Shown here: piece after piece, positions 5,644-64,000 of the stretch
Numbering within the stretch: position 1 is the first letter of the stretch
How the letters are laid out: every line of letters begins with the position of its first letter
Source: Amoebophrya sp. A120
Lineage: Eukaryota; Protista; Dinoflagellata
Assembly: GCA_905178155.1 (NCBI GenBank)
Contig: CAJINV010000005.1
Coordinates: forward strand, 8,959,222-9,023,221
DNA: 64,000 bases
Reading direction: 5' to 3'
Notes under the pieces: model-generated
What the model was told of the DNA's origin: nothing
The model's database searches: none
What the model saw: only the letters and a program-made list of their open reading frames with translations
Made by a program: the position numbers and the translations under genes

Positions 5644-5664
5644 CTTGCTGCTGATCATGTGGCC

Positions 5665-15524: not shown

Positions 15525-18153
15525 TTAAACGATATCCGCCACTTTTGCTAACAGCATGCGTCCGGTCATCCTCTCGTATCCTGAGTAAAAACGTACCCAC
15601 ACCATAGTCAAGATGGGGAATCGGCTAGACAAATCCACAAGTTTTGGCTGTTTTGCATGACAAATTTGGATTCTTAGTGTAGTGCTGTTTGAGCTAGCTC
15701 AGCAGCATCACAGATCTAGCATACCATGCTGATTGGAGCATGACAAATTGCAAAACACGACTAGAAAATGCTTCTCATGGGGCTCCGCATGAGAAACATT
15801 GTCAGCATGCAGATTTGCATTACAACTCTGGTGTGGGTACGTTTTTACTCAGGATATCTCGTACAGCAGAATTACGAGGAAATTCCCCACCAGCAGGAAG
15901 GAATACAGCACTTATTAAGAGGAAAAATCCCCCCTCCCCATATCGAAAACGAAATTTGTGATGCAGATCTGTGGTCACAAATCAGCTTTGTGATGCTAGA
16001 AGGCAAAAGTTGCGGACTCTAGTGCTGTCTAGCGTGGAAAAAACCTTGCGGCTCCAGGATGATAGGAGGTAGCTGGAAGTGGGAAACAGCATGACAGACT
16101 ACCTGCAATTTAGGCCGCAGCTTCGTCTGTGAGCCTTCTAGCAATACAAGTTGATTTGTGTACTCAAATACAGCATCACAAATTCGCGCGCCTTCCGTTT
16201 CCGATATGGGGTGGGAGGATTTTTCCTTTTGATAGCACTGTCTCGTTGTGCTTCAGAAATTCGTCGCCGTGTTTGAAGCCAAACTTGACTATCAGCACCA
16301 CCAACTTCTTATGCTGTGCAAAAGTATCGTACTCGTATAAATGCATTACAAATTGACTTAGCATTACAAATTTAATTTGTAATGCGCATTTGCCTATAAC
16401 AAAAACAAGATTTGTAATGCATAAACGCATACGCAATTAGTACGAGTACGATACTTTTGCAGTTCATACTTCTCGATGAACACCCAGGCCGAGGTGGCCA
16501 CCAAAATGCTGCTGAAAGCTTGCACTGCGGTCTTCCAGATGGGCCGCTGGTGTGACTGATGCGAGAGACTGGTGTCGCCCGTCGCGGTTCTGCCTCCAAT
16601 CTGGGGCTCCACTGCCTCAACCTCCATCGGGATCTGCTGATTTTGGCTGGTATCAAATGCAAATATGTCTGGGTCTGGAAACCTGTGATGCTAAAATGTG
16701 GATGACGGAACTACTTCCGGATGCAGCCCAGCATGACAACTTTCCAGCACGCTTTCTCTTTTCCCATACGCAATCCGCATGAGAAACTGCCTTTTTGCAT
16801 GACAAAAGTGGGAGTGGCTGCGACCCAGACCCAGACGTATTTACATTTGATAGCTGGGTGCGTCCGTGCTCATCAAGGTGCGGTTTAACTGCTCCTGCTC
16901 CAATTTGTGCTGCTGCTGGTGCTGTTGCAACAGCTGTGCGCCGCCCGACGGCGCGGTGTGGTGTTGAAATTCCTGCTGCTGTCCTGCAAAACCCAGGACC
17001 GCGTGCTGCTGCAGATACCAGGCTAGGAGTAGCGAACAGAACCCCACGAAGCCGAACGTGAGCAGTTGCAACCGCAAGTGGTCGGGGAAGAGAATGTCCT
17101 CCACGATCCCTATCCTCAGCAAAAACTTTCCCACCGCAGAGTTGTCATGCAAATGCGTATATGACAGGAACATTTGTAATGCGCATCTCCATAAGGAGCA
17201 TTTCCAATTGTCCTTTGGACTTTGTCATGCTGTAAATCGAGGATGAGACGCTGGGTTTCTCCTAAGGTTGCCTTTGCTACCCAGCACTAAACTGCAGATG
17301 GAAACTTGTCATGCAAAACTCCGAAAACTTGCAGATTGGTGTTGCAGATTTCCCATCTTGACTCTGGTGTGGGAACGTTTTTACTCAGCATAATCCCTTC
17401 GTACCAGTCCCACGTCCACACGATGAAGGGGAAAAGGAGAAACCACTGGAAAACGTTATTGTTGGAAGGTTCGGAGATCGCCGTTTTGATCAGCTCCCGG
17501 GATTATCCAGTGCAAATATGTCTGGGTCTGGAAAGGTGGAACTTGTAATGCTGAGCTTCCACTCCTGTGCAATCTGTCTTGCATGACCAACAAAAGTCGC
17601 AGCCTTTTCTGTCACGCATAAATGCAGTTTCTCATGCGGGCTGCGCATGAGAAAGCGTCCTGCAAACTTGTCATGCTTGGCTGCATGTGGAGGCGTTGTC
17701 ATCATCCACAGTTTAGCATCACAAATTTCCAGACCCAGACATATTTGCATGTGATAGGGATGAAGACGAACCGGAGCCGAGACCGCGGCCGGTATGCATT
17801 GCAAATACGTCTGGGTCTGGAAGTTGGTGACTTGTGATGCTGTTTTTGGATTCCAAAAAAATCTGTATTGCATGAACTGCAAAAGGGTTCCAGTTTTCGC
17901 TACGCGGAGAGGGAATTTCTCATGCTGTATGGGCATCAGAAAGCATTTGCAAAATCTGTGATGCTAGAGCATGCATCACAGACAAAATCATGGGTCATGC
18001 AAAATATGCATGACAGACGTTGCATTTTTCCACGCCCTGACATTGTTGCAGTTGATAGCCGGAAGGTTGCTGCAATTCCCCGGTGAGCTCCTGTGGCGAA
18101 GCGTGTTGCGTCGGTGCCGGCATATTAGAAGTGGTGGTCCCGTAGGAATTCAT
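15525..18153 (-). CDS. Hypothetical multi-pass membrane protein, 8 exons, ~276 aa
   Basis: Removing 7 introners plus one TSD each gives an open 831-nt frame: MNSYG...FQWFLLFPFIVWTWDWYEGIVEDILFP...SILVATSAWVFIEKLVVLI...YSFLLVGNFLVILLYE...KVADIV*. Confidence 0.8.
15577..15856. mobile_element. Introner, family B
   Basis: TIR TATCCTGAGTAAAAACGTACCCACACCA; TSD TCTCG. Confidence 0.92.
15913..16234. mobile_element. Introner, family C
   Basis: TIR TATTAAGAGGAAAAATCCCCCTCCCCATATCG; TSD GCACT. Confidence 0.92.
16310..16468. mobile_element. Introner, family D
   Basis: TIR TATGCTGTGCAAAAGTATCGTACTCGTA; TSD CTTCT. Confidence 0.92.
16651..16852. mobile_element. Introner, family A
   Basis: TIR TATCAAATGCAAATATGTCTGGGTCTGG; TSD GCTGG. 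Confidence 0.92.
17111..17392. mobile_element. Introner, family B, opposite orientation to the 15577 copy
   Basis: B-type TIR; TSD ATCCC. Confidence 0.9.
17504..17756. mobile_element. Introner, family A
   Basis: A-type TIR; TSD GGGAT. Confidence 0.92.
17793..18057. mobile_element. Introner, family A
   Basis: A-type TIR, right arm diverged; TSD GCCGG. Confidence 0.88.
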
Positions 18154-18967
18154 GATGGCGCAGCGCTGGGTGCAGCCGGTAGGCCGAAAAGCATCAAAAG
18201 CTACGCACTTGTACGGGGGGTCCTCGGCGTCGCCGACTACAGGAATGCAAGATGTGAAGGAGCGCGGCTATGAGGACTATATTTTTCCACCATCGTCGAC
18301 TTCATCGACAGAAACAACAACAAGTCGCGAAGATCTGCTGTAATGAAGATATTCTATTTTACGTGTCTGACCACGGAGCTCGTGCGGAGCTACGCAAACC
18401 TTTATTCCCAGATAAGTAAAAACATGAGCCTTTTTGAAACTTCTGTCACGAGAGGACCCTGAGGACTTCTGCTCGTCTCACTCACTAGCAATTGCTTCGA
18501 GCTTCCTCCCTCTGAGTGCAAGAAGAACTCTCAAGTAAGTAGTCGTGTGCTCACATCGTCCTCCTGGCACCAAGCTGGTGCGGCGCACGTCGATGGGACT
18601 GCGAGTTTGAGCGAAAACGACATGAGAATTCATGCATTCCGCAGGAGAAACAGCTCCTCATCCCGGAGATTGAGGCTTGGCTCTGAATAAACAACAGAGT
18701 CATCATCAGATGAAGCGTTTTTCTTTTTTCTGTAAAACTCTCTTGTAGTTGTACTTGTATCGCAACGTCGACTACATCACGAGTCGCAATCATTTCTACT
18801 TCCAATTCATCAATATTGTACAGTGCAGGTAGTGCGTGTCATCCCAAGAAATGGCAACAATATGAACTCAAATCTTATACGAAACTCAAATCTTATACTC
18901 AAGTACGACACGACCATGTTCTTGCAACCAAATAAATCTGTACAAAGCAGTGTCCTCGAAAAATCAA

Positions 18968-20548
18968 TCAATTCTGTCCCTCCGAGTTCCTAAACTTCAG
19001 CATTTCCAGCTTCACCCTATCAAATGCAACTATGTCTGGGTCTGGGAGATTGCGAGATTTGTCATGCTAATCTGGCATCATGACTCTGAACTCTATGTTG
19101 CGGCACCGCAAAGAGCTCACTCTTGCTTGTCATACAAATTATAACTAAAACGCACTTTCTTATGCGGAGTACACAACGCAGAACCACGGAAAAACTTGTC
19201 ATGCTTGATAGCGCATTAAAGTTGTGTGCCCGCTATTCCCTTCCTTGCATCACAAGTTTCCAGGCAGAGGACCCAGACATATTTGCGGTGCATACACTCG
19301 CCGCGTCCGCAGGTTCCACTGCGCGACGATCATTCTGCGCTTAGTATGCTTTGTAAAAACGTCCCCCCCCCAGAGTTGTAATGCAGATCTGCATGCTTAA
19401 ATTGTTTCTCATGCGGAGACGCATGAGAAAATTTCATTTCTAGTGGTGTTTTGAGATATGTGTATGTGATGCATAAATCAGCATGACAAACTGGATCTGT
19501 GATGCTGCTGCACTAGCTAAACGTGACTACATTACAAGCCCGAATTTGTCATGCGCAACAGCCAAAGCTACGTGATTTGTGTAGCAGATTTCCCATCTTG
19601 ACTATGGGATGGATTAGTTTTTACATTGGGTACTTGATCTTCGCGGAGAGTTGCGGAAAATTTTGCTTCAAGTCGTTCTTTATCAAATGCAAAAATGTCT
19701 GGGTCTGGAAACTTGTGATGCTAAAATGTCACTGGTGGGCGCACTGCAATACGCAGCCAAGCATGACAACTTTTTGAGCTGCTCTTGTGTTTCGTTTTCC
19801 GCATGGCAAACTGCGTTTCTGCATGACAGACAAGAGGCCCTTTTCGTGGCTATGCAACACAGATTCATCTCGAGTCATACCAGACAAGCATCACAGACTT
19901 GCATTCTTCCAGACCCAGACATTTTTGCATTTGATATTCTTGTACTGTTTCCACTGCGGCCCAAAAAACTCCTCCTTTAGCTCGTCAAACTTCTCCATCC
20001 TGTGCTAAAGTAACATCGAACTCGCACATCGTAATTGCAATCGTGCGAGACAAATCTTGATCCTGAGCTAAATCAGTATGCTGGCGAATTCCGTTTGTCA
20101 TGCTGAGCTGCAAGTTTGTGATGCAGTTTCTACGTAGTAAGATATTACTTATGCAATGCATATTCTGCTCTTCTTTCTCGAGAAGCTGCTTGTTTTTCCC
20201 GTTTCGTTCCTCCTGCGCACGCGGGGGTCCGCGACCACACGGAGACGTAGAGCTCTTGTGCCGTGCTGTCGGAGGGGATGCTACAGACGCAGCCTCACGT
20301 TTGGACTTGATATGATTCGGCGAGGCTGCGGATGAAGAAGGTCCGCTTTTGTAGTCAGATGGAAGTGCTAGTCTTGATGCTCCAGGTGAGTTTTTTCTCA
20401 ACATCATGCGGGTGTCAGTCAGACAGTTCATCCCGGCTTTCAGTTTTCGCTCGATTCGCTTCAGCTGCTCGTCCACGTCTGCGTCACCACTAGAGACGAA
20501 AGAAGTCGTTGGAGCGGGAGAGGTTAATAGAGCCGTTGTGGCAGCCAT
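18968..20548 (-). CDS. Hypothetical protein, 5 exons, ~190 aa
   Basis: MAATTALLTSP... joined across 4 introners gives 573 nt ending ...KIKRRMIVAQWNLRTRRVKLEMLKFRNSEGQN*. Confidence 0.7.
19018..19294. mobile_element. Introner, family A
   Basis: TSD CACCC/CACTC. Confidence 0.85.
19345..19632. mobile_element. Introner, family B, diverged
   Basis: TSD CTTAG/CTTGA. Confidence 0.8.
19681..19936. mobile_element. Introner, family A
   Basis: Near-perfect 30-bp TIR; TSD TTCTT. Confidence 0.92.
19996..20162. mobile_element. Introner, D-like, diverged
   Basis: TSD TTCTC/TTCTG; removal preserves frame. Confidence 0.65.
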
Positions 20549-29200: not shown

Positions 29201-32200
29201 GGCAAGGGCTGCACGCTGTTGTAGCTCGGCTTTGACTTGAGAGCCTCGGAAGCGTTGGGACAGGTGGGAAGCTCCGTTTCGTCCGTTTCACCAGGGGCAT
29301 AAAAACGCCACTCCCCGAAGAGCAGGGGCGAAAAAACGGTCATCATGATTTCCTTCACTTGGTTTCGGCGGTCCACCTTTTGTTCCGCCGTCGTGCCGTA
29401 CTTGACCAACTCGGCAACCCGCCTTGCGAAAACGTCTCCAGAGTAGACCATAGCGCCGTTGGCGAATTTGTTGTTGTCGTCGTTCTCAGCAATCGACCGC
29501 ATGATTTGCGGGACGTCAAAGAGAGCGGGGGACTCACCGCGTCTTACCTTCTGCAAATTACGGGCAATCGTGTCGCGAAGGTGAGCGTGCGCAGACTCAG
29601 AGTTGGTAGAAAAAACATGAAAGATGGTATAACTGAAGCTCGGCAAGTCAATGAGCGGGTGGGCCGAAGATGGTTCCTCAACAAGTCCATGAGCGGATTC
29701 CTCTTTGTGCAAGATCGGCTTGATCATGATGATATCAGGGTGCGTGTCAAAATCAAAAAAGAAGATCTCGCTCAACCCAAAGTCAAACACCAAGGGCTGC
29801 GAAGCATACCCAGGCGGGACTCCCCAGTCATTGCGTTGCACCAAGGGCACCCCCAGGCTCATCGGCGTCAACTTGGCATACTGGATTCCCAAGGACTCGA
29901 AGCGCAAGAGGCACTGTCGCAGGTGTTTCACGAACACAGCTGGGTCGAAGTCCTCGTTGTTGTGAATGTGCGCTTGGCCGAGCCACCCACCGTCTTCATC
30001 AAGTGGCGTCAGGTATCCAAATAAAAACTTCCCGCCCCCCGCCCCATATTTGAACGTGGCCGCAGATGGCACGCACAGGGGAGGTAGGTCTGGCGATCGC
30101 CATTTTTGTCATGCAAATCTGCATGCGCCGAATGAAAATGAATGCGTCTCGTGAGAAAAACGATCAGAAGCAGGAGTTTCGTTTACGTTTATTGGGTGCT
30201 ACAAATAGATGATCCCTCAGGACCGCAACTACAAGTTCGATTTCTGGCCAGCACGAGGATTCTCACGACAACCCCGTATCCCCGACGTGTAGTCATGCGC
30301 AACAATTCGCATGCTAGCAGTGTCCCCTTTCTGACCTTGCCTATGGGGAAGCGGGAAAACGCGGCTTTTAGATAGGATATTACGCGTTCCATCATTATGC
30401 AAATTTCACGACCCTGCACGAGGAAAAACTCCAGGTGCGGCACGCAGTGCGTGAGCGTGCTTGTCGTGACATCCATGTCGTGGAACACATCTTGCATGTT
30501 GCTTTTTTCGAAAAACGTCAGCAGCATGTGCACGAAAATTTCGGAGGAAATGTCATCGATCCTTTCCTTCTGCTCTGCAGGCGTACTGGCATCGACGCTT
30601 TGGCACTTCATGGCGTACTGTGACTTTCCATTGAACGAGTACCTCGCCACCGTATGATAACTACCCCCTCGTCTTCCAGAATGGCCTTTGTCTTTCTCCC
30701 ACCCAGGAGGTAGCTCGTACTTAACACCAAAGGTCTCCGGGTACAGGATATCAAGAAGAAAAATCCCCCCTCCCCATATCGAACCGGAAATTTGTGCACA
30801 AATTTGCGGTCACAAGTCAGCTTTGTCATGCTAGAAGGGAAAAATGAGGACTCTAGCATTGGGCTGCGTGGGAAAGCCGCTGCATCTTCAGCATGACAGG
30901 AAGCAGCTGGAAGTGGGACACAGCATTACAAATTGCCCGCAAACGAGGCCACAAGTGCGGCTCTTGGCCTTCTAGCAATACAAGTCGACTTGCGTACTCA
31001 AATGCAGCGTCACAAATTTCGTTTTCGATATGGGGAGGGGGTTTTTTCCTTTTGCTACAGGACGTCCAGAAATTCCAGGACTTTCTTCTTAGGGGTACTG
31101 GTCCACCACGGAAACAGTATCAAAAGGAAATATCCCACCTCCCCATACCAAAACGAAATTTCTGATGCTGGATTTGCGTAGACAAATCAGATTTGTTTTG
31201 CAGAAAGTGCTTGGCAGCATTTTCTAATCCTGTTTGGGTATGCAGAAGGCTAGCAATTACGCAGGGCAAACAGCTCTGCAGTAGTCGAAAGCGCATGACA
31301 GACTGGCTGTGAAATGCGCCAAATGGCTCCCATTACCCTATAGGCAAGACACAGGCGATCTGTGGCCACAAATCAGCATCACAAATTTCCATTTTGATAC
31401 GGGGACGGGGGATTTTCTCTTACGATAAACAGCTTCTGGTCGTCTTCACACATTTTTCGCAACTCAGCCCAATGCTGAACAAGGTTGCTTTCTAGCGCGC
31501 GTCCAACAGCCCTCGGATCGTCAAAATTCGGCACCATTTCCGCAACCTGCACCATTGAGGTGGAAAATTCGGGAAGAAATCCGAATCCGCCGTCTCCGAA
31601 CGAGACGACCGCACCGTTCGGCCCCTCAACTTCTATCCCGTATGAAAACGTCCCCAAAATCCCTGAGCTGTATTGCAAAAAATCTCCGTTCCCAAAATAT
31701 TTCTCATGCGGAGACCCATGAGAAGCATTTTCTTCTAATGGTGTTTTGATACTTGTGATGCTCAAACCAGCATGATAGGCGAGATCTGTAATTCTGCTGC
31801 AGCACTAGCTAAAGACGACTACTCCGCGAGCCCAAATTTGTCATGCGCAACCCTCAAAGCTTGTTGATTTTTCTAGCAGGTATTACAATTTCTCATCTTG
31901 ACTCTATTGGGTGGAGACGTTTTTACGCAGGATAACTTCCGCGTCGGTCCCAATCGCCGTGGTGTCGTTGCGCGGACCAAGGAACTTTATCGTAATGAAA
32001 AATCCCCCCTCCCCATATCGACAAGAAAATTTGTGATGCTGATTTGTGACCACAAGTCAGCTTTGTCTTGCGTACAAGGCAAACGGCACCGTCCATGTGG
32101 CGCATTTTACAGCGAGTCTGTCATGCATTTTCGCCTATGTCCGATTTGTATCTGATGCTCAGCTGCTAGCCGGATGCGTACCCAAATGGGCTTAGAATAA

Positions 32201-32382
32201 GCCGACAAGCTCTTGCTGCAATACAAAGCTCATTTGATGTGTACACAAATCCAGCAACACAAATTGTCTCTTGGATACGAGGTGGGGGCTTTTTTCGCTT
32301 TGATAAACTTCCGCTCGACAGCTTCGATAGCAGCGGGCGCGCCAATTGCATCCTGTGGAAAAAAACGCACAACCCGCTGCAT
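23227..32382 (-). CDS. Large protein with four tandem protein-kinase-like domains, 9 exons, ~2268 aa
   Basis: Removing 8 introners plus TSDs gives an open 6807-nt frame joining ORFs 32230, 31379, 30189, 28414, 26608, 24692 and 23227. Each repeat has YAxK, SEIFVH-like, H(G/A)xL(K/R/T)P-like, DFG and D(L)FSF motifs. The start codon is tentative. Confidence 0.8.
24518..24774. mobile_element. Old family-B-like introner, kinase repeat 4
   Basis: TATGCGGTAGAAAAGTCACCCCACCCC / GGTGGGTGCGCTTTTACATAGGATA; decayed TSD; removal of 262 nt is in frame. Confidence 0.8.
26385..26642. mobile_element. Old family-B-like introner, kinase repeat 3
   Basis: Paralogue of the 24518 copy; removal of 263 nt is in frame. 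Confidence 0.8.
28262..28451. mobile_element. Old family-B-like introner, kinase repeat 2, internally deleted
   Basis: TSD GCACG/TCACG; removal of 195 nt is in frame. Confidence 0.8.
30014..30379. mobile_element. Old family-B-like introner, kinase repeat 1
   Basis: Same codon position (after MMExV); removal of 371 nt is in frame. Confidence 0.7.
30749..31057. mobile_element. Introner, family C
   Basis: TSD CAGGA. Confidence 0.9.
31118..31427. mobile_element. Introner, family C
   Basis: TSD AACAG; empty paralogous sites lie in the downstream repeats. Confidence 0.92.
31634..31934. mobile_element. Introner, family B
   Basis: TSD ACTTC. Confidence 0.9.
31988..32305. mobile_element. Introner, family C
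   Basis: TSD AACTT. Confidence 0.9.
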
Positions 32383-43874: not shown

Positions 43875-43875
43875 N

Positions 43876-48620: not shown

Positions 48621-49415
48621 GATAGCTGCACAACTCCAGAAACAAATTGTACCGAAAAATCTACTACGAGTGGTCACCGATTCTTCCGAGGCGAAGAAAA
48701 ATGAAAACTTAAACTACGTAGTGACTTCAATACATTGCTGCTCGGTGTATTCGATTCATATCAATACCGAAAATTGCAATCACTTACTTACAGTAGGTTC
48801 CCCACGACCGGATAGTACAGAAGTTGGTGTTGGTGTTGGAAAGAAAGAACCTGGCAAACCAGACACAAGAACTAGCTACTGAAATCGGTAAACGAGAAAA
48901 AGAACAAGCCGGGCCCGAAGAGACGAGTCGGAGCTTTCTTCACCCAGCAAATTGGAAAACATGTTTCCCTGCAGCTGCTGCACCCGTCTTCTTCAATATT
49001 TCTGTGGGCAAGCGCAAGGTATTTATTTTGTCGCAAGAAAGATTCATTGTATAAATTCAAAGATGTCGACTAGATGCGGACACGACCCTTCAGCGTCGCC
49101 TTTTCTACTTGTTAAAACAAGCCGCGTACAACTTCTGAAGTAGCTGACCATGTATTTATTTTCATCGTGTTACTTTCCTCCACTTCTGACCACCGAAAAA
49201 AATCATCTGGTGTTCTTCTCGTGGTGAACTGAACCTCGATGCAGCGGCTCCAGAACAAGAAGATCATTATTTCTTGGAAATAAACAATGGAAAAATACTA
49301 AATGCGCGTGATAAATCTTCTCCATTTTTTTCTTCTGGAAAATTCGTACTGCTCGTTGTCCTTGACTTCGCCGCAACTACATGCTGGCTCAGAACAACAT
49401 CAAAAACCTCCCGCC

Positions 49416-52400
49416 TCACTTCAGCGATAGTTGCTGCATAAAGTACCGCGCGTTCGGTGACACAGAGATGTGTCCGTTTTTCGACAGAAAGTTCTGAACC
49501 TGCAGCAGCCTCTGCCGCAAGATTTGGGATCCCGAACTCCCGGGCAGCAGCTGGTCCTGCAGCATGCCGCCCCCCGCGGTATTCCCGAAATGGTCCGCCG
49601 CGTAGTACCGCGTCAGTAGGCTGATGTACGTCTCCAGGATTTTGGTGTAGTCGACGGAAAAAAAGCCGGGGAGCATTTGCTCATCCGGGTTGGAAAGAAA
49701 TTCCTCCCGATCGAAAAGCTCTAAAGCCTCTTCGTACCTGAGTTCACGTTGTAGAGGTCGTTCTTTTTTGATAATTATTTGCATTATGTCGAAATGTTCT
49801 GCACGACCAAGCATGCATTGCGATTGCGATGTTGTGAGTTTTGCATGACAACACCTCTTCGCAGCATCTTCTTCAAAAGCCGTTCGTACTAAGTACATGA
49901 TCATAGAACAAACTTCTAATTCTATACCTTCCCTGGTCCCGGACGCAGTCGTGGAAGTGTTTCAACCGCCACAGCTTGCAGACGAACCTCCACACCCTCG
50001 TGATTTCGTCCGAACTCCGCGTGGTCTGTTGCGCCGCACGGGTGCCATGATCCGCCGCGTTTGTCACAACCATACCGGAGTTGTTAGAGGAATTCACATC
50101 GATTCCGAACGACGCCCCGTAATCGGCGTACATGCTCAAGAACTTGCGGCACTCCTGTTCTAATTGCCGCAGTTTAAAACTATTTGTCCACGCGGTAGTA
50201 CTAGCCGCACCTCCCGACATGGAAGTACTAGTGGCTCCACCACCAGCCCCGCCCCCGCCAATCGGCTCCTGACCGGGGGTGAAGGTGGCACCGGAAGACA
50301 AGTTGCGGCTGCCGCAGCTGGCCACCTCCGTGAAAGCGGGGAGCCGCAGAATCCGCTGCATGGTTTCCAACACTTTCCGGTAGTTGGTGGACAGGTGGAG
50401 AAACCGCAACGCCAGGATGTACTTCCCGCGACGAAGGGCGTCGAGCCCCAGCGACTCCATGATGCTCCGAAATTCGCTGGTAGTGTCATTGGAGGAGGAA
50501 ATCTTGTTGTTCATCAACAGCTCTCCTGCGCCGTTACTGGAAGAACCACTCGAGTTGTTGCCCTTCATTTTCATCTCTCTTTTCCGGTTCAAATGGTCGA
50601 CTTTCGCTTCCAAAGACTCCTGCAACAGGCCCTTCGTGTGGGAGCCGTCGAGTAAGATTTTTCCGGTCAGAAGCTCCAGGGGAGAAAAATTATTGTCGTG
50701 GTCGGGTACTAGCATGTTACTAATCCCTGTCGAAGCTGCTCCTACTCCACCCGAGCCCGGAGCGGTACTTGTTACCACTTCCGCATTTGACTGCGTGAAG
50801 GACTTTAAAATCCGCAGATAGGCGTATTTTCGGTCAAAGGGCTGCATATCGTACGAAAAAACTGTCTCACTGTGGTGATTTTGCAAAATCTGCATCACAA
50901 GTTTGTTACGCATGACACTGAAAATCTGTCATGCGGGGTTCCCAAGGGAAAAAACAGCTAGAAATCAATTGTCTTGCATGTGTAGCATGACACACACTTC
51001 TGCGATCCATTTTCTGCATCACAAGTTCACAATGAAACAGTTTTTTCTTGCGATACTGCAGGATTTGGATGTAATTCAACTGCTCGCTCACGTCAAACAT
51101 ATGCAAGAGAAAAACTGTGTAAGTGTAACTTTCTTTGGCTGACAGCATCACAAATTTGCTCTACATGACAGAGAAAACCTGTCATGCTTGGCTTGTAAGG
51201 GAAAATACACATGAAAAAAGGACTTCATGGCTGTGTGGCATGACAGGTGTAACTCTGTTGCATGTTTTGCATTACAGAGTTACACTAACACAGTTTTTTT
51301 CTTGGATAAAACAGCTGGTTGCTGTAGTTCACAATCTCGTCGACGTAGGGGTTTTATCGAATGCAAATATGTCTGGGTCTGGGAAAGTGCAAGGTTTGTC
51401 ATGCTAGCATAGCAAGACTCTTAAGTCTGTCATGCTCGTTACCGAAAAGCCCTATTTTCCTGTGATCGAGAAACGCAGTTTGTCATGCAGAATAGGCAAC
51501 ACTTAGAAGCCTAGGAACTTGTCATGCGGAGCCAGCATTTGTGGCCTCCACATGCTAAGCCACTCAGCATTACAAGTTTCCAGACCCAGACATATTTGCA
51601 TTTGATAGGTATTTTTCCTTGTCAAAATCCAACACGTGGGCTTTCGCCAGTGTCACCGCCAGATGGATCGTGATAGAGGACCTGAGGTTGTAGAAGTGAG
51701 TATTACCAATACAACTTTGTCGTCCTCGTGGTCGTGTCTCAATTTACAAAAAAGAACAATCATGCGCGTGGATTTGCATGCCCATCGTGGTGGAACTGTT
51801 GAAGTCAAGGCAACTAGACTAGGGCATCGAAAGAAAATGCAAATCATTTATATCATAACACAAAAAGAAACAATACAGCAAGGCCGGGTTTCGGTTTTTC
51901 AGCGCTCGGAGCCCCTTCGCGTACTGTAAGGAGAGTATCCCACGAAAAAACTGTTTCACTGTGATGATTTTGCAATATCTGCATCACAAGTTTGTTACAT
52001 ATGACGCGGAAAACTTGCCATGCGCGCTTCCCAAGGGAAAACACGCTTCAAAATCCAATGTCTTGCAGGTGTAGCAAGACAAAGAGTTTTGTGTTCCATT
52101 TTCTGCATCACAAGTTCACAGTGAAACAGTTTTTTCTTGCGATAGAAAGAAACAGTAATTTGATGTCATCCAGCTGGAACTGGGATTGTTTCGTCGTGTT
52201 CAATATCGGGTGCAAACATGTCTGGGTCTGGAAGGTTGCAACTTGTCATGCTAAATCTGAATCATGCAACGAACCTGTGTTGCGTGATTACCAACAGCCG
52301 TCCTTTTTTACCAAGTTGAGAGGGAACTTCTCATGCAGGAGAGGCATGATAGAGATCTCACAGAATTTGTCATGCCAGGTGCTGCATTCTAAACCCTATG

Positions 52401-55400
52401 AACCATAGAAAACCTGCATGACAAACCTGGCAATCTTCCAGACCCGGACATTTTTGCATTTGATATTCAAAAAGTTTGCCACGTCCGCGCCCGAAGTTCC
52501 CCCGCTCAGCAGACCCATATTTGCCCCCCCGAACCGGCTGCCCTGCTGGAAAAAGGACATCATGTTCAGGTTGCTGCTGCCGAAACCGCCCAGGATGCTG
52601 CCGCCGGACTTGCGCGCGTCCGTCCACTCAATGATGGACATGATATGGAAGCGTCAGGTTTGAAATCGACAAACTTAAAATGATTTGTCATGCATAAAAT
52701 GCAAGGCATGAAGTGCCTGTCTTGCCGGGATGGCAAGCGAGGCAGATTGTGAGCCTCTTTAGGGTTTGGGATAGACTTGCTAAAGGAGCACGACCAAAGC
52801 AGTCTTCTGTGCCCAAACAGCATGACAAATTGGATTCCGGTGCTCCGAAAACTTGTCACGCAACCGCTTGCAAATTGGGCTTCCAAGTGGTATCGCTTTT
52901 ATGCATAGCAAATCATTTCAACTTTGTCGATTTCAATCCTGACACTCCCATACATGATTTTCTCTTGGTACTCTTCCAGCGAGCACCTTTTGTTCTTGAC
53001 CAACAGCAGGTTATGCCACACCAGGTTCTCTGAGGTCCGCATGCGCTCCGAGAACATGTCGCGTGGGTGATTCGAGAAATTCGGGATGTGGTACTGTTCC
53101 TCCTGGAGCGTGAGTATCCAGGAAAAAAACTGTGTAAGTGTAACTGTGTAGGAAGAGCAGCATCACAAATTAGCTTTGCATTACAGGGAAAATCTGTCAT
53201 GCGCAGCTAGTACGTGGAAACACGTATGAGAGTAGCGTATGACGCAGATCCAGCATGACAAGTGTAACAGTTTTGCACTTTCTGCATCACAGATTTACAC
53301 TTACACAGTTTTTTTCTTGCATAGTGAGCGAAGTGTCTTCAAAAGGGAAATCCTCGCCCAGGATAAGTTTCAGACACAACTTATCCTGAGTAAAAACGTC
53401 CCCACCACAGAGTCAAGATGGGGACTTTGCAACACAAACCTAGAAGTTTTGATGGTCACGCATGACAAGTTTCAGTCCGTAAGGTAGTGCCAGTTAGCAA
53501 GGAAAGCCGCATCACAAATCGATCTGCTGATCCTGTTTACAGCATTACAAGTTCCCAAACACGATTGGAAATGCCTGTCATCGGGCTGCGCATCACAAAT
53601 GTTCCTGTCATGGCAAATCTGCATGACAACTATGGTGTGGGGACGTTTTTACACAGGATACAACTCCCGGAACACCGCCCCGTTCTGGCTCTGCTGGCTC
53701 CGGTTGGTGGTGGACATCTGCGGCTGGCCACCCGGGTTGTAACCCGCACCGTAGTGCTGCTGATGGTGCCCGGAAGTGGCGTTGCTGTGTTTTTTATATT
53801 TCGAGAATAAGTCAGTCTGGTTGTGCGCTTTGTAGTTTCTTCATTATACAAATTCCTAGGCGGTTTGCTTTCGAAATGAACCACGCGCCTTGATGACCTA
53901 CCTTGTAAAGCATGCCAATCTTTGCAGAATAACTTCTTGAGCCTCTCGAGTAGAGAACAAACTCAGTATGGTACTGTCGACGTGAAAGAACCGAATGCTA
54001 ACACCCACCTCATCAAGTGAGCATCATTATCATCAAGTTGTAAGTATATGATACCCGGCCTCATTCCCCCACATCCTGTGATATCCAAGAAAAAAACATT
54101 GCAGGTGTAACTTTTTTGGAGGAACAGCATTACAAATTTGTCTGGCATGACGGCAAAAACCTGTCATGCGCAGATAGTACGTGAAAACGCCCTTTAATGG
54201 ACCCTACGACGCTTGCCAAGCATGACAGACGCAATCACTTTGCATCTTGCGCATCACAAATTTACAGTAACAACGTTTTTTTCTTGGATATGTGGATTCC
54301 AGATCCCAGTGCGGACTCGATGGTAGCTACGACGGAGTTATCAAATGCAAAAATGTCTGGGTCTGGAAGAATGCAACTTGTGATGCTGCATTTGGATGTC
54401 TAAAAAATTTGTGTTGCATGAGCAGCAAAAGGATTCTCAATCTTGCTACGCGGAGAGGGCATTTGTCATGCGGAAGAGGCATCACGAATCCCTCAAAAAA
54501 CCTGTGACGCTAGGGCACGCATCACAGACATCATGGCTCATGCAAACCGTGCGTGACAAGTGTCAGAATCTTCCAGACCCAAACATTTTTGCATTTGATA
54601 GGAGTGCTCCAATGAAACCGAGGTGCCCTGGAGCAGCGAGATCAGCACCGGAATGCAGGTTTGCACACACAAATCGAATTCCGCTGCGTTCGCAAAGCAC
54701 TGCCTATCCTGCGTAAAAACAGGACCCACGAAGAACGTGGTATCAACAAGGAGGAGGTGTTGAGAACTCTAGTACTACAGATGAGATGTATCTTTGGTTG
54801 TTGCTACTCGAAATGCCAAATCTCATGTTGAATCCGCAGAGCAAAAAGCTACTGTGCGGTGGTGTTCTTGGCCAGTGCCAGAAATCCGATCAAGTGGAAA
54901 GGACCACACTCAAGAATGCTCCTGCGCGGGCCTTGTTCAACTGCTCTATGCAGATGACTCGTCGCATGACACTACGGATGTTGTCCTCGTTCTCCACCTG
55001 TGGGAACTCGTTTTTACCCAGTCGATACTGCCGCAGCCTCGCTTCGGATTGCAGGTACCGCAGCATCTCCGGACTATCTACGCGCAGCGCGTGGAAAACG
55101 AGGAACCTGATGTTGTTGTGATGTTAATGTTTACGGTATTTGTGCATGACAGATGCTAGTTGTACTCTCCTCCTGCAATTACACATTCAACATAGTCTAG
55201 TACAGAGAACAAGTGCTATACCATGCGTGTCCAGCGGTGGAGGGGAAGTGGGCGTCGTCCCATATGATCATGCCGTAATTGATCAGCAGACTGCATATGT
55301 CTTGCTCCGCCGTTCGTGGTATGAATTGCAAAAGTATCGTAATCGTACTCATGTAAATGCATTACAAATTTCCTCAGCATGAGAAATAAATTTTGTAATG

Positions 55401-58400
55401 CGGACTTACCTTAAGAAAAAAATTTGCGATGCATGGCCGCAACTACTACGGGCACGATACTTTTGCAGTTCATACGTGGCATCTGTTTGCAGGAATCCCG
55501 AATCTCGCTGATTTTCCACATCCGCAGAAACTCGACTTATGCAAGAAAAAAGCTGTGTAAGTGTAACTCTGTAATGCAGAAAATGTAACAGAGTTACATC
55601 TGTCATGCCAGACAGCCATGCAGTCCTCATTTCATGTGTGTTTTCCCTTACAAACCCTGCATGACAGACATTCTCTGTCATGTAGAGCAAACTTGTGATG
55701 CTGTCAGCCAAAGAAAGTTACACTAACACAGTTTTTTTCTTGGATACGATCCCCCGGTCGACTAACAAGGGAGCGGCTGTTTTTTAATATTGTGCATAAT
55801 GGAATTCAGAAGTATACGAGCGTAGAGCGAAAAACTAATTTTTCTATCATACTAGCAAAAGTACACTAGCAGTCGTGGTCTCTCGACACATACAAGGTGA
55901 GGACCTGCCACAAGACACCTGCAACTACCACGATTTTTACCTTGTTTACAACAATCGCAACACAATTATAAAACCATGAATTTAAAAAATCTTTATCTAG
56001 AGGACACTGATAAAAAGTACTTATCGTCATCGGATCTTGTCCCACCAATGCCAGCACCAGTTCCCACAAAAACTTCAGGTCGCTGCAGTACTCGCTCCCG
56101 CTGTAACTTTGCAGCGACAGCGAGTACACCTCGAAGGCCAGGCGGTCGATGGTCATAAAGGAACTCCGATTGAACAGTTCCGCGATATCGCGCTCGATCT
56201 GCAAGTTCTGGTGCAAATTCCCCGTCGTGTTCGGCTGCACCAGTAACGCCGAAGACCTACCTGCGCCGCCGTTTGCACTAGTTCCCCCGCCCGACAGGAC
56301 CACGCCCTTCTGCCGGCTGGCCTGATTCCCCACCGCGGGGGCTCCCCCGGAGAGGTTCAGCAAAAAATCCGTGCCCAGGTCGTTCCCGGCCCGGATCTGC
56401 TCGATGATCTTTTTTTTCATCGTGTTCCACTGGTAATTCAACTTCGCGGAGGATTTTGCGTTGGCCTTGTAGAAGCTGTCCTTCATCGATTCTTCGATGC
56501 TGCTAGTCAGCGTGTTGTGCAATTCGTTCAAAAAAGACTGCGCCACCACGGGCCCCCGCCCAGTTCCCTCCGTCGCTTCGTCCTCTAAAACGTCGTCGTG
56601 TAGTAAGTCAAACCGGGAAGAAGCTGTTCCACCCCGAGCGGACCCTTTGGTTTGAAACTGCAGCTCGTCATGTTCCTGTCCCGGGTAGGTTCCGTCTTGC
56701 TCCAACTGGTGAGGCGCATCGAAGTCGATTTGCTGCAGCAGCTGCAGGCCCGAAAGCTCGCGGTCCTGGTAGTCCGTCCGGGAGTCTTGCAGAAGTCGGT
56801 GCAGCTGTTTAGTAGTAGGAAAAGGAAGGCTTTTCCTTTTGCATTCTGGTTGTTGAAAAAAGTGCACGAATCACAACTGTATCATTTTTTTTTCTCATGA
56901 GGAGAACTACCCCACGTCAAAAACGCCCCATATGCAGCAGGACAGTGCAGGTTGAAAAGTGGATGAGAAACGACCCAATTTTCCAACATCGCTACCTACA
57001 AGTACAAGAGCCTCGACTTGAAAAATCAAACGATGCGACGGAGAAGCATAATATTACGTGAGTACAACTTCAAACATGAAATCAGTACAAAAATCTACCT
57101 TCGACTTGTTCGAGGCCAAGCCACTTCCCGCGCCCACCCCGAGCGGCACCGAACCAGCGCCGCTCCCGGCGCCACCGCCCAGTCGCGTGCTGTCGCGGAC
57201 TATCAAAAGCAAATATGTCTGGGTCTGGAAGGATGTATTACTTGTAATGCTGCATTTGGATCCTGAAAAAATCTGTATTGCAGGAGAAGCAAAAGATATG
57301 CGTTTTTTGCTACTCGGAGGGGGCATTTCTCATGCAGTATCGGCATCAGAAAGCCGTCACAATAGCTGTGATGCTCGCGCATGCATCACAGACCTCGCCG
57401 GTGATGCAAAATGTGCATGACAAACTTCCAGACCCAGACACTTTTGCAATCCATAAGGACATCTTGGGAAAACTTCGCCAGCCCTTCCGCGATCACATTC
57501 TGCACGTGCAGGCTATGGAGCTGTCAGGATCGAAATCGACAAAGTTGAAATGCTTTGTCATGCATAGAAAGGATGCCCGTTGTAACCCAGTTTCCAAGAT
57601 GCGCATGACAAATTTGGGTAGCGCCGGAATCCAGTTTGTAATGCTGCTCCGGTAAGGAAGACGCCTTTTGTCGTGCTACTTTAGCAGCTCTATGTCTACA
57701 ACCCCTCGACAGGCTTACTGCCTCCCTTGCCTACTCTGCAAGAGAGGCATTTTGTGGGTTGCATTTTATGCATTACAAACTATTTCAACTTTGACGATTT
57801 CAGTCCTGACGCTTCCATACAGATCGTTTGCCAAGTAGTTGCGGTTTCGCAGCCGCTCGTGCCCGTCCTGAAACAGTTGTATGAAATGCAAAAATGTCTG
57901 TGTCTGGAATGTTGCCGGATTTGTGATGCATATTTTGCATGGCCCAGGATGTCTGTAATGCACGACCTAGCATCACAGATTTTTAGTGGGCTTCCTGATG
58001 CCTACTCCGTATGACAAATGCCCTCCCCGCGTAGCACAAACTAGACTCCTCTCGCTGGTCATGCAATACAGATTTTTTTTTACCTTCCAAAGACAGCATC
58101 ACAAGTTCCAACCTTCCAGACCCAGACATTTTTACATTTGATAAGTTGGGATAAAGAACAGCTCGGGTTGCTGCTCTGGACGGACGTGTTATTCCCCTGC
58201 TGCCGCGAAGCTGGGTTCCTCCCCCTGGAAGAGGAGGACTTGTGGACGGAGGACGTGTATCAAATGCAAAAACGTCTGGGTCGGGAAGGTTACCAGGTTT
58301 GTCATGCATCTTTTGCATGACTCAGAATGTCTGTAATGCATGATCTAGCATCACATATTCTTAAAGGCCTTACTGATCGATGCCTATCCCGCGTGACAAA

Positions 58401-58948
58401 TGCCTTCCCCGCGTGGCACAAACTGGGCTCCTCTTGCCGGTCATGCAATACAGATTTTTTTAGAATCCGGAGTCCGCATCACAAGTTGCAATCTTCCAGA
58501 CCCAGACATATTTGCAGTTCATAACGTGAACAGAAACTGCTGGCCGGAGGAAGCGTTTGAATTGCGCTGGTTCCGTTCGTAGAGCGCTTCCATATGAAAT
58601 GCAAATATGTCTGGGTCCGGAAACTTGTAATGCTTAAAGTGAATCATAGACGCACTGCAATACGCAGCTGCACATGACAAATTTTTCGGCTGCCATGTCT
58701 TACGTTTTCCGCATGGCAGACTGCGTTTTTGCATGACAGGTAAGAGGGCCATTTCCTGCCTATGCAACGCAGATTCTCGAGTCATGCCAGACAAGCATGA
58801 CACACTTTCATCCTTCCAGACCCAGACATATTTGCAATTGATATTCCAAAGTCGTTTGCATTCTCTTCAGCGGCTTCGACGGTTGGGAGGAACCGCTGGC
58901 GCCGCCGTTCGGCAGCGTACCAAAAACCGACTGCGGGGGAGGCGCCAT
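49416..58948 (-). CDS. NUP93: Nucleoporin Nup93/Nic96-like, many exons
   Basis: Segments resemble Nic96 in order: TLEALYERNQR; TSSIEESMKDSF...QWNTMKKKII; TSENLVWHNLLLV...SLEEYQEKI; ALRRGKYILALRFLHLSTNYRKVL; KHFHDCVRDQGRYEEALELF. ATG at 58948 (MAPPPQSVFG). Not every junction was resolved. Confidence 0.7.
50847..51055. mobile_element. Introner, family F
   Basis: TATCGTACGAAAAAACTGT / ACAGTTTTTTCTTGCGATA; TSD CTGCA (duplicate at 43563-43771). Confidence 0.9.
51100..51308. mobile_element. Introner, family F
   Basis: TSD AAACA. Confidence 0.9.
51355..51607. mobile_element. Introner, family A
   Basis: TSD GGTTT/GGTAT. Confidence 0.9.
51936..52144. mobile_element. Introner, family F
   Basis: TSD GAGAG/GAAAG. 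Confidence 0.88.
52204..52465. mobile_element. Introner, family A
   Basis: TSD TTCAA. Confidence 0.9.
52644..52952. mobile_element. Introner, family E
   Basis: TSD CATGA. Confidence 0.9.
53115..53323. mobile_element. Introner, family F
   Basis: TSD GTGAG. Confidence 0.9.
53382..53660. mobile_element. Introner, family B
   Basis: TSD CAACT. Confidence 0.92.
54082..54290. mobile_element. Introner, family F
   Basis: TSD TGTGA/TGTGG. Confidence 0.9.
54339..54600. mobile_element. Introner, family A
   Basis: TSD GGAGT. Confidence 0.92.
55320..55474. mobile_element. Introner, family D
   Basis: TSD CGTGG. Confidence 0.9.
55538..55746. mobile_element. Introner, family F (reverse orientation relative to the 51100 copy)
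   Basis: TSD CGACT/CGATC. Confidence 0.88.
57201..57455. mobile_element. Introner, family A
   Basis: TSD CGGAC/AGGAC. Confidence 0.88.
57514..57819. mobile_element. Introner, family E
   Basis: TSD CAGGC/CAGAT. Confidence 0.88.
57880..58143. mobile_element. Introner, family A
   Basis: TSD AGTTG. Confidence 0.92.
58258..58523. mobile_element. Introner, family A
   Basis: TSD ACGTG. Confidence 0.9.
58593..58843. mobile_element. Introner, family A
   Basis: TSD TTCCA. Confidence 0.92.
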
Positions 58949-61479
58949 GGTTGGTGTTCGTTGTTGCACCACTTGTCGTTGCGGAGGAGAAACTTACTTC
59001 GGAGCAGCTCGGGGGGCAAAAGATGCTCGGGAAATTATTGGTTGTTTTCCTATGCGTGTGGCATTAGGCTTTTTTTAGAATTAATACGGATACTGTCGCG
59101 GGAACATGAAATCGCAACCCATTCATCTTCACGAGCGGTGCATCATGTTTTGCGCGCTACCAGAAATGAATGAAACTCGAAGTAGAAGTTCTCTATCAGG
59201 GATGAATGCTATGCCGCTAGTAATTCATTATCCGTGGACTACAACTTCTTTACTGGCTAGGTAGAAAGAGAAAATATGAGTCCATTTCTATTTCCATTTC
59301 TCCTCTGATGTGTGTCGCTGGAAATAAGGAACAGAACAAATTTGTACGAATAAGCTGCGTGGAAATATTAAAACCACAAAATTTATTGGAACTAGAAGAA
59401 CTATCCCAAATGGAGCGCCGACGACCTAGCAGCGTGCCTGCCTACAGAATATTAAAGGCGGCCCTGCTCTAGGTGAGCGTTTAATTTCTTCAAAAGTAGG
59501 AACCGCGGTGATTGTAAAAAGGACCACACCGGATGAACTTTTTGAGCAAAAATAAGCTATTGCATCTTTATTTTACAAAAATTTTAGAAGAACCAAGACG
59601 AGAAGTTTTTGATTCCAAGCTCGGCTCTGGTGCTGAACGGGATCTGATCATCTTTCTGGAGCTCTGCGTCGAAATAAATAAACCAAACATTCAAAAATGA
59701 ACTGTGAAGGAGGACTAACTGCAGCAAAAGGATCTTCGATTTGCTGCACTGAAGGATTTACTCGCATCTACGGGTCAGCACAAGTAGAAAGAGTCGGGGT
59801 TTTATTGATCACAACAGGGAGAAGTCGTGGCAGTATCGAGTTATTTCCATCTTGTTCCCTTTGGTTTTACCAGCTGATGATTGCTCGAGCTTGTGGATTT
59901 AGTCGTGAGTTGTACTGCAAAAGCTCGTCTTTGATCGACACTTCTTCATCGTGATCTGATGTATCGGAAGAACTACTTATAAAAAAAAAGTGCGTTGTGC
60001 AACACGAAAGAACTTTATTTTTTCCGCGAACAAACAGCACCATCCGTCTGGACCAATGGCCCGCCATAGTACCCACAGAAACTTCCAACCCAGTTTTGGG
60101 AGCGCAGAACCTCCGCCGGGGGCTGCGAAACAGATACAAGTTGAGATACAAGTAGAAATGATACAGGGTTCGTCTAGTGCGAGTGAGATTATCAATCGAA
60201 ACGTGGTTCTTTTATCCCGAAGTATTTTATTCCGGAAATATTATCCCTTTTGTTGCATTTCCTTCCATGCTCGGGTGGTTAAAATTCCAGCATTCCATTT
60301 GTAGTTCAAACAGAAGTCCTCTTCTCTATGAAGTGGAATCAACTGGCGCGTTTTGTCTGCGACAGGCTGAAGTCTTTTCCTAACTTTATTGATTCCCTAA
60401 TACTTCTTCCCGAACCGGACCTGAGCTGCAGTCTGTCCATTACGACGTAGTACATGGGTAGAAGTAGAAACTCCATTGGTTTCATCTGTGGACTTGCTTC
60501 ATCACATACAAATTTCATTGCGCAACAGGATAGAAGTACTGTGGGACGGTGATTCAACATTATCATATGTTCAGTTGCATTTTTACATAGGACCAGTGGT
60601 TTGCGAAGTTCTTCTTGAAAGCAAGACAGACTCTTTACTAAAAAAATGGTTGTGTACAGTGTGAAGACATCTCTCTGCTGAGGGGTAAAGATGAAATTTC
60701 TGCTAAAAGTATTATAAAATAGTCAAAAGTTGTAAGCAGTGCCAATAAAGTGTCGCGTGAAGAAGATCACTGATAATTTATTAATCGAAGGAGGAAACAA
60801 CGCCAGATCATGCAGCAGGAAGGCCAACGTCCCATCCTGCGTGCGAGTTCGGTGGATTCCTCGAAACAAACTGCTCCACGAAAGCATGAATTTTTCTTCA
60901 CTTTTTCTACATACTGATATTGCGCCAGCAAAGATGTAGAAATTTGCTTTTCACCTAGACTACCGAGGATGCCCTACTAGCACAGATGGTGCACAACAAG
61001 CACAACATCCCCGTTCCAAACCCAAAGCTCCTCTAGACTTGCGGGAGCCCGCTCTCCGCCTCGTGTTGATATCAGCCAGAAAAAAAGGGCCTGTGAAATA
61101 GCTTTTGTGCATCGATTTCCATGCTAAAAACGTAGTTGTGCCGCATCATAATCGGCGTCAAAATTTATGAAGAAGGCGTTCCTCGAGTGAGACGCAACTG
61201 CTTTTGTAACATACAACTCATGCGTTGAAACTCTGAAAGAACAATGTGAACGACACAAAAACGACCCACAGGCATGTACTGACGACTTTTTCCGTCCGAT
61301 AGATCGCATTTGCCGTTATCAGGCGTGAGATTCCCCTTTCCCAGTACGGAATCCATCGCGGCGCTTTTGTTTTCCACCGTCGCGTTGTTGACGACCTGTT
61401 GTTTACTTAAGAAGTTTTTTCCTTCTTGATCTTGTTCAAGCACGAGCACAAGTTCGCACACTAGGCACAGACGTGTTCA

Positions 61480-61840: not shown

Positions 61841-62113
61841 GTGTATGTTAGTAAGCATGTTGCGACACTGCACGACAAAGTCAGCATACTAACTTGCTTC
61901 ATTTCACCTTCGCAAGGACCACAAAGTGGTCACACGCCATTAAGTACGCATGACAAACCTCCGCTATACCTTTCCCTCCCCTTCGCCGCAGCCATGGAGT
62001 GCCGTGAGTGGTGGCGAACCAGAACAAGCAAGCGCAGCTTGGGTGTCGTGCGAGTGCGTCGGAGCCTGATATTAACGAAGAGGAATTGTTCGTAATGTCT
62101 GGTCTGCGAACAA

Positions 62114-64000
62114 TCACACTCGTAGACGCAAAACACCCAAGTATACACAAAAAAACGCACTGGACATGTGTCTACTTTCTATTCTTACCTCTTCTCCTAC
62201 CGCCTGTTCCTTGTCCCAACCAGATTCCGCCATCGTTCCGTAAGACCCCGCCAGTTTGTCCTCTTCAAAACCACTTTGCTGCTCCTTTCCCCGTATCAAA
62301 TGCAAATATGTGTGGGTCTGGAAAAGTGCAACGTTTGTCATGCACGTTTTGCATGACGCATGAGGTCTGTGATGCATGCCCTGGCATCACAGATTCTGTG
62401 AGATCTTTGCGATGCCTTTTCCGCATGAGAAACTGCCTCTTGGCTTGCTCAAAAGTGGACAGCTATCTTTGTAATCATGCAACACAGGGCTTTGCATGAT
62501 TCAGACTTAGCATGACAAGTTGTACTCTTCCAGACCCAAACATATGCAATGCATACCCCGCCTCGGCGATCCGTAGTTTATTCTGTGTAAAAACGCCCCC
62601 ACCCCAGAGCTGTCATGCAAGTCTGCATGCCAAGAAAGTTTCTCGTGCGGAGCCCCATAAGAAGCATTTTCTAGTCGTGTTTATTTGGAATTTGTGATGC
62701 TAAAATCAGCCTGATATGCTAATTCTGTGATGCTTCTAAACTACCTCGACAGGATTACACGACGAGGACAGACTTGCCATGCGAATGAAACAAACAAAGC
62801 TGACTAATTTGCCTAGCAGATTCCGTATCTTGACTCTGGTGTGGGGACGTTTTTACTCAGGATATAGTTTCTGTTTCCACCGCCATCACCTTTGTAGTAC
62901 CGAAAGCAGATCGCGAAGATCCGGCGAATATCAAATGCACATATGGCTGGGTCTGGAAGAATGCAGAGGTTTGTGATGCAGCTTTGGCATGACCAAGAAG
63001 GTCTACCATGCACGCCCTAGCATTACAGGTTTTGAGAAGGTCTCCTAATGCGTAACCCGCATGACAAAGCCCTTTTTTCGGTGGCGCGAAATATGCACCT
63101 TTTGGTTTACATGCATGACAGATTTTTGTGTGATGTGAAATGCGCATCACAAGTTCGCATCTTTCCAAAACCAGACATACTGATACTTGCACTGCATAGC
63201 GAAAGATTCCATGGTACCAGCAAAAGAAGACGAACACCAAGATATCAAAAGAAAAAATCCCCCGCCCTCCCCATATCGAAAAGGACACTCGTGGTGCTGG
63301 ATATGCGTACACAAATCAGATTTGTCTTGCAGTAGAGAACTGCAGGCATATGCCAACCCTGGGAAGCGAGGGTCTTGACCACATAGGCGCCGAGCATTAC
63401 AAAGGTCCACACTGCAGACCCAACAGCATCACAAACCGCCTGCTCAATGCGGCGCAGGCTGTGCAATTGCCTCCTTGCAAGACAGATACGATTTGTGGCC
63501 ACAAATCAGCATTGCAAATTCTCTGTGGCTTCCTTTTCGATATGGGGAGGGGGGGAAATTTTTCTTTACGATACAGTACTGGCGCTGCGGCGAAAATGCC
63601 AAAGTGTAACGCCCATGGATGCTTCTGCACGAACCGCGCCAAGTCCTGCATGTCGGCTGGATTGAAAGTGTGCACGTTGAAAGTTTCTTCCCTGTACTTT
63701 GTGCTCCCGGGGCGGGTGGACCTGCTTCTTTCCGAACTGGAGTTTCCCTTGTTCATCCCGTGGTTTCCAGAGGATTCTTCTAAACCGTAGCCGTACTGCC
63801 CTTGTCCTCCGGCCTCCCCCGGACTGGTGGTAGAAGCCACAGCGGAAGAAGAAGCCGAAGTGGTTACTTCTAGCAAGGTTCTACTTTCGTCCGCTGCAGC
63901 ACGATCATCACCGGTCGTAGAGATGACTTGTGGTTCTGAGCTGGCGACTTCTGGTCCGTGAGTCTCAAACTCGGTCACCGCTACACTTTGCTCGTCGGGT
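62114..64000 (-). CDS. 3' part of a hypothetical membrane protein; start outside the window, 3' end uncertain
   Basis: ORF 63397..63978 continues across 4 introners: ...HFGIFAAAPVLVFVFFCWYHGIFRRIFAICFRYYKG...RNYGSPRRGKEQQ... Confidence 0.65.
62294..62555. mobile_element. Introner, family A
   Basis: TSD CCCCG. Confidence 0.9.
62579..62864. mobile_element. Introner, family B
   Basis: TSD TAGTT. Confidence 0.9.
62929..63198. mobile_element. Introner, family A
   Basis: TSD GCGAA. Confidence 0.85.
63243..63573. mobile_element. Introner, family C
   Basis: TSD CAAGA/CAGTA. Confidence 0.9.

Follow-up and report, generated by a model that had tools for sequence, protein, structure and literature searches.

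The removal of repeated elements from Amoebophrya transcripts without GT-AG signals is already known from published work, and the present study concerns such elements in a 64,000-nucleotide stretch of Amoebophrya sp. A120 (contig CAJINV010000005.1, positions 8,959,222 to 9,023,221; hereafter the window, numbered from its first letter). In Farhat 2021, A120 introners are described as elements of about 240 nt with an inverted repeat of TAT, seven looser bases and AAA, with removal supported by RNA sequencing and a proposed hairpin; direct repeats of 3-5 nt are given, with one 5-bp example, and the border position is called unknown (PMC7789003). Among 40 of the 58 rows of Gozashti 2025, A120 DNA families with terminal inverted repeats (TIRs) of approximately 149, 209, 252-260, 305 and 317 bp are found, and family 38 is labelled Ginger, with a 5-bp target-site duplication (TSD) and TA/TA termini; the splice-site calls are mixed, following the annotation (PMC12130899). 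The window elements match these families in size, the comparison being one of size and description rather than of sequence, and they share the 5-bp TSD and TA/TA termini of family 38. They also carry the inverted repeat of TAT, seven nucleotides and AAA, are flanked by direct repeats, form repeated families, are removed without GT-AG and show no anatomical difference from the published A120 introners. By motif and family sizes they are therefore very likely introners of A120, in agreement with the link drawn in the initial annotation. What is added here is a probable cut register, with the border bounded to N-TAT...ATA-NNNN, and evidence in favour of the terminal bases, rather than the stem, as the end signal.

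The nonconventional introns of Euglena likewise lack GT-AG and have slidable repeats that hide the border; their paired triplet keeps a constant spacing to each cut, which differs between the two sides (PMC12501133, PMC11282704). However, Euglena is an unrelated lineage, and its introns are described as N3-CAG...CTG-N5, the 3' exon starting with a purine (PMC12501133), whereas the window introns belong to clearly repeated transposon families, read N1-TAT...ATA-N4 and show no such preference. CAG at +4 to +6 and CTG at -8 to -6 are absent from them, the ends being TAT/ATA with 1- and 4-nt spacers. Introns of Fritillaria borealis that derive from miniature inverted-repeat transposable elements (MITEs) resemble the window elements in their TIR/TSD origin and non-GT/AG ends and are reported to be removed by an altered major spliceosome (PMC13326754, PMC11282704). 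They favour AG-AC and AG-AT ends and have a target preference (PMC13326754), whereas positions -2, -1 and +1 are all free here. In the introners of Micromonas and Aureococcus, a MITE insertion is also cancelled by splicing the element and one TSD, but these introners assemble GY-AG out of both the TIR and the TSD and hence require a target sequence (PMC11282704), which the window elements do not.

The elements are removed from RNA exactly, together with one TSD, are kept in DNA and are spliced in both orientations. Joint-level RNA evidence comes from one gene and one RNA sample:

49001-59318, minus strand: RNA-verified gene with a 1231-codon open reading frame (ORF) at 58948-49416 and 18 elements
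50847-51055, 51100-51308, 51355-51607, 51936-52144, 52204-52465, 52644-52952, 53115-53323, 53382-53660, 54082-54290, minus strand: first nine elements of this gene
54339-54600, 54705-55027, 55320-55474, 55538-55746, 57201-57455, 57514-57819, 57880-58143, 58258-58523, 58593-58843, minus strand: last nine elements of this gene
49738-49927, 51682-51876, 53785-54054, 55107-55221, 55777-56020, 56805-57098, minus strand: six GT-AG introns of this gene, all ending in CAG

The four runs of this sample (X1-X4) consist of contigs only; their RNA label was originally a guess, but they skip GT-AG introns and are therefore RNA. One RNA contig covers 49001-59300 in 4463 nt, the length predicted for the locus minus all 18 elements (each with one 5-nt TSD) and minus the six GT-AG introns. 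Between 51250 and 57870, 15 of 18 joints are listed in the four runs, 11 skipping an element plus 5 nt and 4 corresponding to GT-AG introns. Neither GT nor AG is available in 8 of the 18 elements. The element at 54705-55027, which is diverged, has a weak, out-of-register stem and is preceded by G, is still removed as 323+5 nt; GC-AG would also be possible for it, in another register. The DNA-like run X5 keeps the elements, and a contig at 54574-55347 spans the one at 54705. In a separate raw-read RNA run (2026), 49 reads matched, all partially and on elements, and no junctions were obtained. The precise removal of an element with one TSD as a noncanonical intron, put forward in the initial annotation, is borne out in the RNA contigs of this gene, as is the dispensability of GT and AG for the 8 elements mentioned.

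Elements were detected by searching without bias for inverted repeats bordered by direct repeats, by a scan anchored on TAT/ATA and by BLAST with the copies found. The range 15525-63573 contains 48 distinct TAT...ATA elements of 145-331 bp, all in minus-strand frames; about 50 had been noted before, but the earlier upper length of 370 bp was not found in any element. The six families noted then are clear (~260, 280, 150, 209, 320 and 310 bp), and one 218-bp copy adds a further type. TSDs are exact over 5 bp in 33 elements, with one mismatch in 9 and two in 6. In the wider sample of 229 elements described below, the 184 perfect TSDs show no positional base bias, in line with the earlier statement that there is no consensus; the four TSDs quoted with it (17504, 37568, 54339, 57880) are correct on the minus (coding) strand. 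Of 99 TAT/ATA inverted-repeat candidates (duplicates included), 37 are flanked by an exact 5-bp direct repeat, compared to 0, 0, 0, 1 and 0 in five shuffles. In any of six registers, neither GT nor AG is possible in 18 of the 48 elements, while GT-AG is possible in one (35923) and GC-AG in one (54705). The segment 36670-43874 is an exact copy of 43954-51158 (~7.2 kb) across a single N at 43875, and because the DNA is of single-copy depth (DNA-like contigs 44-49 inside, 42-46 outside), this duplication at 36670-51158 is an assembly overlap artefact. Ten elements occurring twice through it were counted once; it also gives rise to spurious gene copies and to a chimeric element (43816-44071).

A single scan of metagenome contigs by terminal pattern extended the sample to at least 136 loci (411 kb), which have no flanking DNA in common with the window, although element copies are up to 98% identical; near-full-length relatives at up to 98% identity occur in other loci for 43 of 45 window elements. 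Among 310 related elements detected by their termini only, an exact 5-bp repeat is present in 241, and repeats of 4, 6, 7, 8 or 9 bp in 0-1. Their 620 ends read T in 611, A in 611 and T in 607 at positions 1-3, and A in 566-592 at positions 11-13. After 17 elements with fewer than 3 of 5 TSD matches had been dropped, together with 110 whose coding strand could not be assigned confidently, the remaining 183 and 46 from the window gave 229 elements, in which U2-type GT/GC...AG ends are generally absent (GT-AG is possible in any register in 6 of 229, GY-AG in 9 of 229). The largest family is oriented 61 vs 48, and both orientations are present in the RNA-verified gene.

The position of the cut can be read where the two TSD copies differ; k here counts the bases of the upstream TSD copy that remain in the 5' exon. 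Six elements give bounds:

54082-54290, minus strand: TSD CCACA/TCACA, k≥1, joint 54076>54291, slide 4
51355-51607, minus strand: TSD ATACC/AAACC, k≥2, joint 51349>51608, slide 3
55538-55746, minus strand: TSD GATCG/AGTCG, k≥2, joint 55532>55747, slide 3
51936-52144, minus strand: TSD CTTTC/CTCTC, k≥3, joint 51930>52145, slide 2
57201-57455, minus strand: TSD GTCCT/GTCCG, position 5 from the downstream copy and therefore k≤4, piece 57099-57196 in all four runs
39691-39983, minus strand: TSD TCGCT/CCGGT, upstream base at position 4 kept and therefore k≥4, joint itself unseen

The last bound was read from an X1 contig of depth 4.9 on the duplicate copy, where it ends at 47267. Because k=4 is the single register satisfying all six bounds (k≥3 at 51936, k≤4 at 57201, k≥4 at 39691 and the three weaker ones), the imperfect TSDs probably give one fixed register, with the intron as N-TAT...ATA-NNNN; that it is common to all families is an assumption. 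Amino-acid and stop-codon effects across 45 imperfect TSDs exclude no register, and since one exon, used as a protein query, had no relative in any longer protein, annotated proteins supply no extra bounds. All nine predominant A120 motifs in Table S4 of Farhat begin with N-T, which may be caused by the aligner (PMC7789003). We found no paper in the literature that fixes the register in Amoebophrya, and figures S19-S23 of Farhat may bear on this point.

If k=4 holds, TAT occupies +2 to +4, as in host GTAT donors; the verified donors of the six canonical introns are GTAT in four cases, GTAC and GTAG. At their 3' ends these introns are rich in A and C and lack a pyrimidine tract, with A at -7 in five of six. 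A transposase sees both ends of an element as equivalent, while the RNA sense does not. Among 233 elements read in RNA sense, the variants at 5' positions 1-3 number 0, 1 and 8, compared to 6, 2 and 1 in the 3' mirror (Fisher p 0.0014, post hoc). Of 12 elements that start with TA but not TAT, 8 have G directly before the TIR, compared to 75 of the 246 other elements (p 0.013, one-sided); if three hand-added copies are left out, the former count is 6 of 9. TSD positions 1-4 show no comparable G excess. A weakened +4 tends to go with G+1, and the terminal letters with which the elements begin in RNA sense, TA(T), act like a splice signal. The sole GT-AG-compatible window element, 35923-36092, is so in the k=4 register, via a TSD mismatch at position 4. 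The element at 19345-19632 starts with G-TAC at the inferred cut; because of this start and an in-frame CAG 6 nt beyond the inferred 3' cut, its conversion into a GT-AG intron may be under way.

We propose, with a probability of about 0.5, that a relaxed major spliceosome removes the elements by cutting one base before TAT and four after ATA. Short TIR transposon copies would be spread in trans by a Ginger-like integrase, as the literature suggests; no autonomous copy, in which such TIRs would enclose an integrase ORF, was found in the 411 kb, where long copies carry cargo. The terminal TAT would then serve as +2 to +4 of a host G-TAT donor lacking G+1, and the 3' cut would be measured from ATA rather than read from AG. 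The hairpin would help as a bridge that brings the ends together and, more speculatively, the branch might lie at one of the adenosines of ATA. Because both ends read TAT, either orientation would carry the full signal, and the messenger RNA would be restored scarless. The protein snRNP27, reported as undetected in A120 (PMC7789003), is counted in favour of a relaxed spliceosome; in yeasts, its loss is described as accompanying +4U donors (PMC10581693). A more tentative extension is that the last three bases of the transposon suffice as a splicing code in either orientation and that the major spliceosome has dropped G+1 and AG entirely. If true, any exon insertion with a 5-bp TSD would be an instant scarless intron, converging on the spacer-plus-triplet code of Euglena.

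Several points weigh against the fixed register and against removal by a spliceosome. Three elements, each from a different family, determine the register, and the bound k≥4 comes from one low-depth contig. In all 339 elements the asymmetry is weaker (1, 1, 9 vs 7, 3, 4; p 0.024) and includes one 5' first-base variant; the 57 extra elements comprise mis-called ends and were kept out of the main variant count. No constraint is seen at +1, -1 or -2: AG at -2/-1 is not enriched (16 vs 16.0 expected), neither are G..G or A..C end pairs, and imperfect TSDs show no drift towards G+1 or AG. Terminal pairs are, in contrast, described as conserved in splicing (PMC13326754). The A at -7 occurs in just 11 of 25 predicted canonical introns, a hint only given a noisy de novo predictor (4 of 17 window calls are RNA-verified acceptors, 3 of them in full). 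U1 small nuclear RNA is stated to be undetected in A120 (PMC7789003).

The initial annotation had the TIR stem define the splice sites, an idea also found as a published hypothesis in the legend of Fig. 4 of Farhat (PMC7789003); it receives no support here. The same stem would be central if the identical register were produced independently of the spliceosome, by a nuclease that recognises the base of the TIR hairpin and cleaves 1 nt upstream and 4 nt downstream of it, and a ligase that joins the exons; a route of this kind has been suggested for the nonconventional introns of euglenids. Such an enzyme pair would account for the lack of constraint at the intron-terminal positions +1, -1, -2 and -3, for the strong stem predicted in 17 of 18 verified elements (z -10) and for splicing in both orientations, and it has an analogue in the Euglena code (PMC12501133) and its circular products (PMC11282704). 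However, RNA-sense mismatches show no excess of G-U over A-C (100 vs 113, 120 vs 105; 40 vs 31, p 0.34), a comparison of low power, and pairing at position 4 is at chance (126 of 229, ~121 expected). The element at 54705 folds no better than shuffles (z -1.06) yet is removed exactly, and the 5' asymmetry and the G+1 excess mirror the host spliceosomal donor. In 3 of the 18 verified copies the terminal triplets are predicted to be unpaired, and in one more their pairing is weak. We regard a nuclease and ligase as the main rival, less likely than a relaxed spliceosome, and since no selection on RNA pairing is seen, the terminal sequence is favoured over the stem as the end signal.

It is less likely still that RNA splicing is real but its cut is not fixed, differing by family or sliding within the TSD under guidance of the repeat or stem. 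Only six elements give bounds, each of which alone allows several registers, and published annotations are spread over many motifs; nevertheless, the single register k=4 meets all six bounds, and the position-specific asymmetry and the G excess independently point to the same one. TA-bounded inverted repeats resemble the internal eliminated sequences of ciliates. A comparable DNA excision in the expressing stage, after which RNA would merely look spliced, is highly improbable: while 1701 joints of the DNA-like run are uninspected, contigs drop rare forms and the life stage is unrecorded, the DNA-like contigs (depth 42-49) enter or cross elements with no gap, and the asymmetry between strands goes with the transcribed direction. 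N-TATCC resembles a U12-type donor. U12-type splicing was set aside, U11, U12, U4atac and U6atac being reported as not found in A120 (PMC7789003).

A fixed register, if true, makes an alignable signal of tens of thousands of ambiguous junctions and singles out U+2, A+3 and the adenosines at -7 and -5 as candidate key bases. It distinguishes a spliceosome that needs no terminal dinucleotides from a novel enzyme that cuts and rejoins RNA, and it would also explain how a transposon can fill exons without cost to proteins.

The remaining element-bearing frames of the window are as follows:

15525-18153, minus strand: 831-nt ORF with 7 elements, all with exact TSDs
15577-15856, 15913-16234, 16310-16468, 16651-16852, 17111-17392, 17504-17756, 17793-18057, minus strand: elements of the 831-nt ORF
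18968-20548, minus strand: 573-nt ORF with 4 elements (19018-19294, 19345-19632, 19681-19936, 19996-20162)
19345-19632 and 19996-20162, minus strand: elements with RNA 5' end TAC preceded by G and with RNA 3' end ATG, respectively
30192-32553, minus strand: 368-codon open frame after removal of 4 elements (30749-31057, 31118-31427, 31634-31934, 31988-32305)
30749-31057, minus strand: element with RNA 5' end TAG preceded by G
35583-41336, minus strand: 3042-nt ORF with 11 elements
35923-36092, 36508-36787, 36876-37164, 37222-37540, 37568-37819, 37857-38118, 38325-38474, 38985-39202, 39274-39418, 39691-39983, 40501-40779, minus strand: elements of the 3042-nt ORF
62117-63999, minus strand: 238-codon open frame after removal of 4 elements (62294-62555, 62579-62864, 62929-63198, 63243-63573)

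Restoration of the frame, claimed earlier for 831, 573 and 6807 nt, was reproduced for the first two, but the third dissolved into the separate ORFs of 3042 nt and 1231 codons. The 3042-nt ORF presumably carries nuclease/phosphatase-like motifs; three of its fragments have no Pfam match. The 1231-codon ORF matches Nic96 at E 0.054, below the cut-off. In Pfam, eight ORFs are without a match and five have sub-threshold matches only; Rfam gave 0 matches in the window, and a PDB search with a 23-amino-acid exon gave none.

Outside the range 15525-63573, an element of the ~310-bp family lies in a plus-strand frame at 13178-13488, and another plus-strand element at 1031-1228 has the 5' end TAA preceded by G. 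A plus-strand member of the 260-bp family at 1429-2457, with the 5' end TAC, has reached 1029 bp through a GAAGAA/TCTTC insert of low complexity, its ends and near-perfect TSD being intact. Inserts inside elements were also seen in the metagenome loci (L068:476-2934, L043:3001-3972 and L005 from 3001); the L068 element contains a 415-codon ORF without a Pfam match, some large inserts are bounded by 19-21-bp duplications, and the L043 insert has an A-rich tail. The minus-strand segment 23230-30108 is a tandem array of at least four related ORFs of 470-600 codons with a common NxDFDPAVFVKH-like stretch; no intact elements lie inside it, and the one ORF tested has no Pfam match. The frame at 30192-32553 is a diverged, element-bearing relative that comes after this array. 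Finally, a GC-rich (~60%) block on the plus strand at 4093-11769, with ORFs of 386, 885 and 1028 codons and neither intact elements nor a Pfam match, is possibly a large mobile element.

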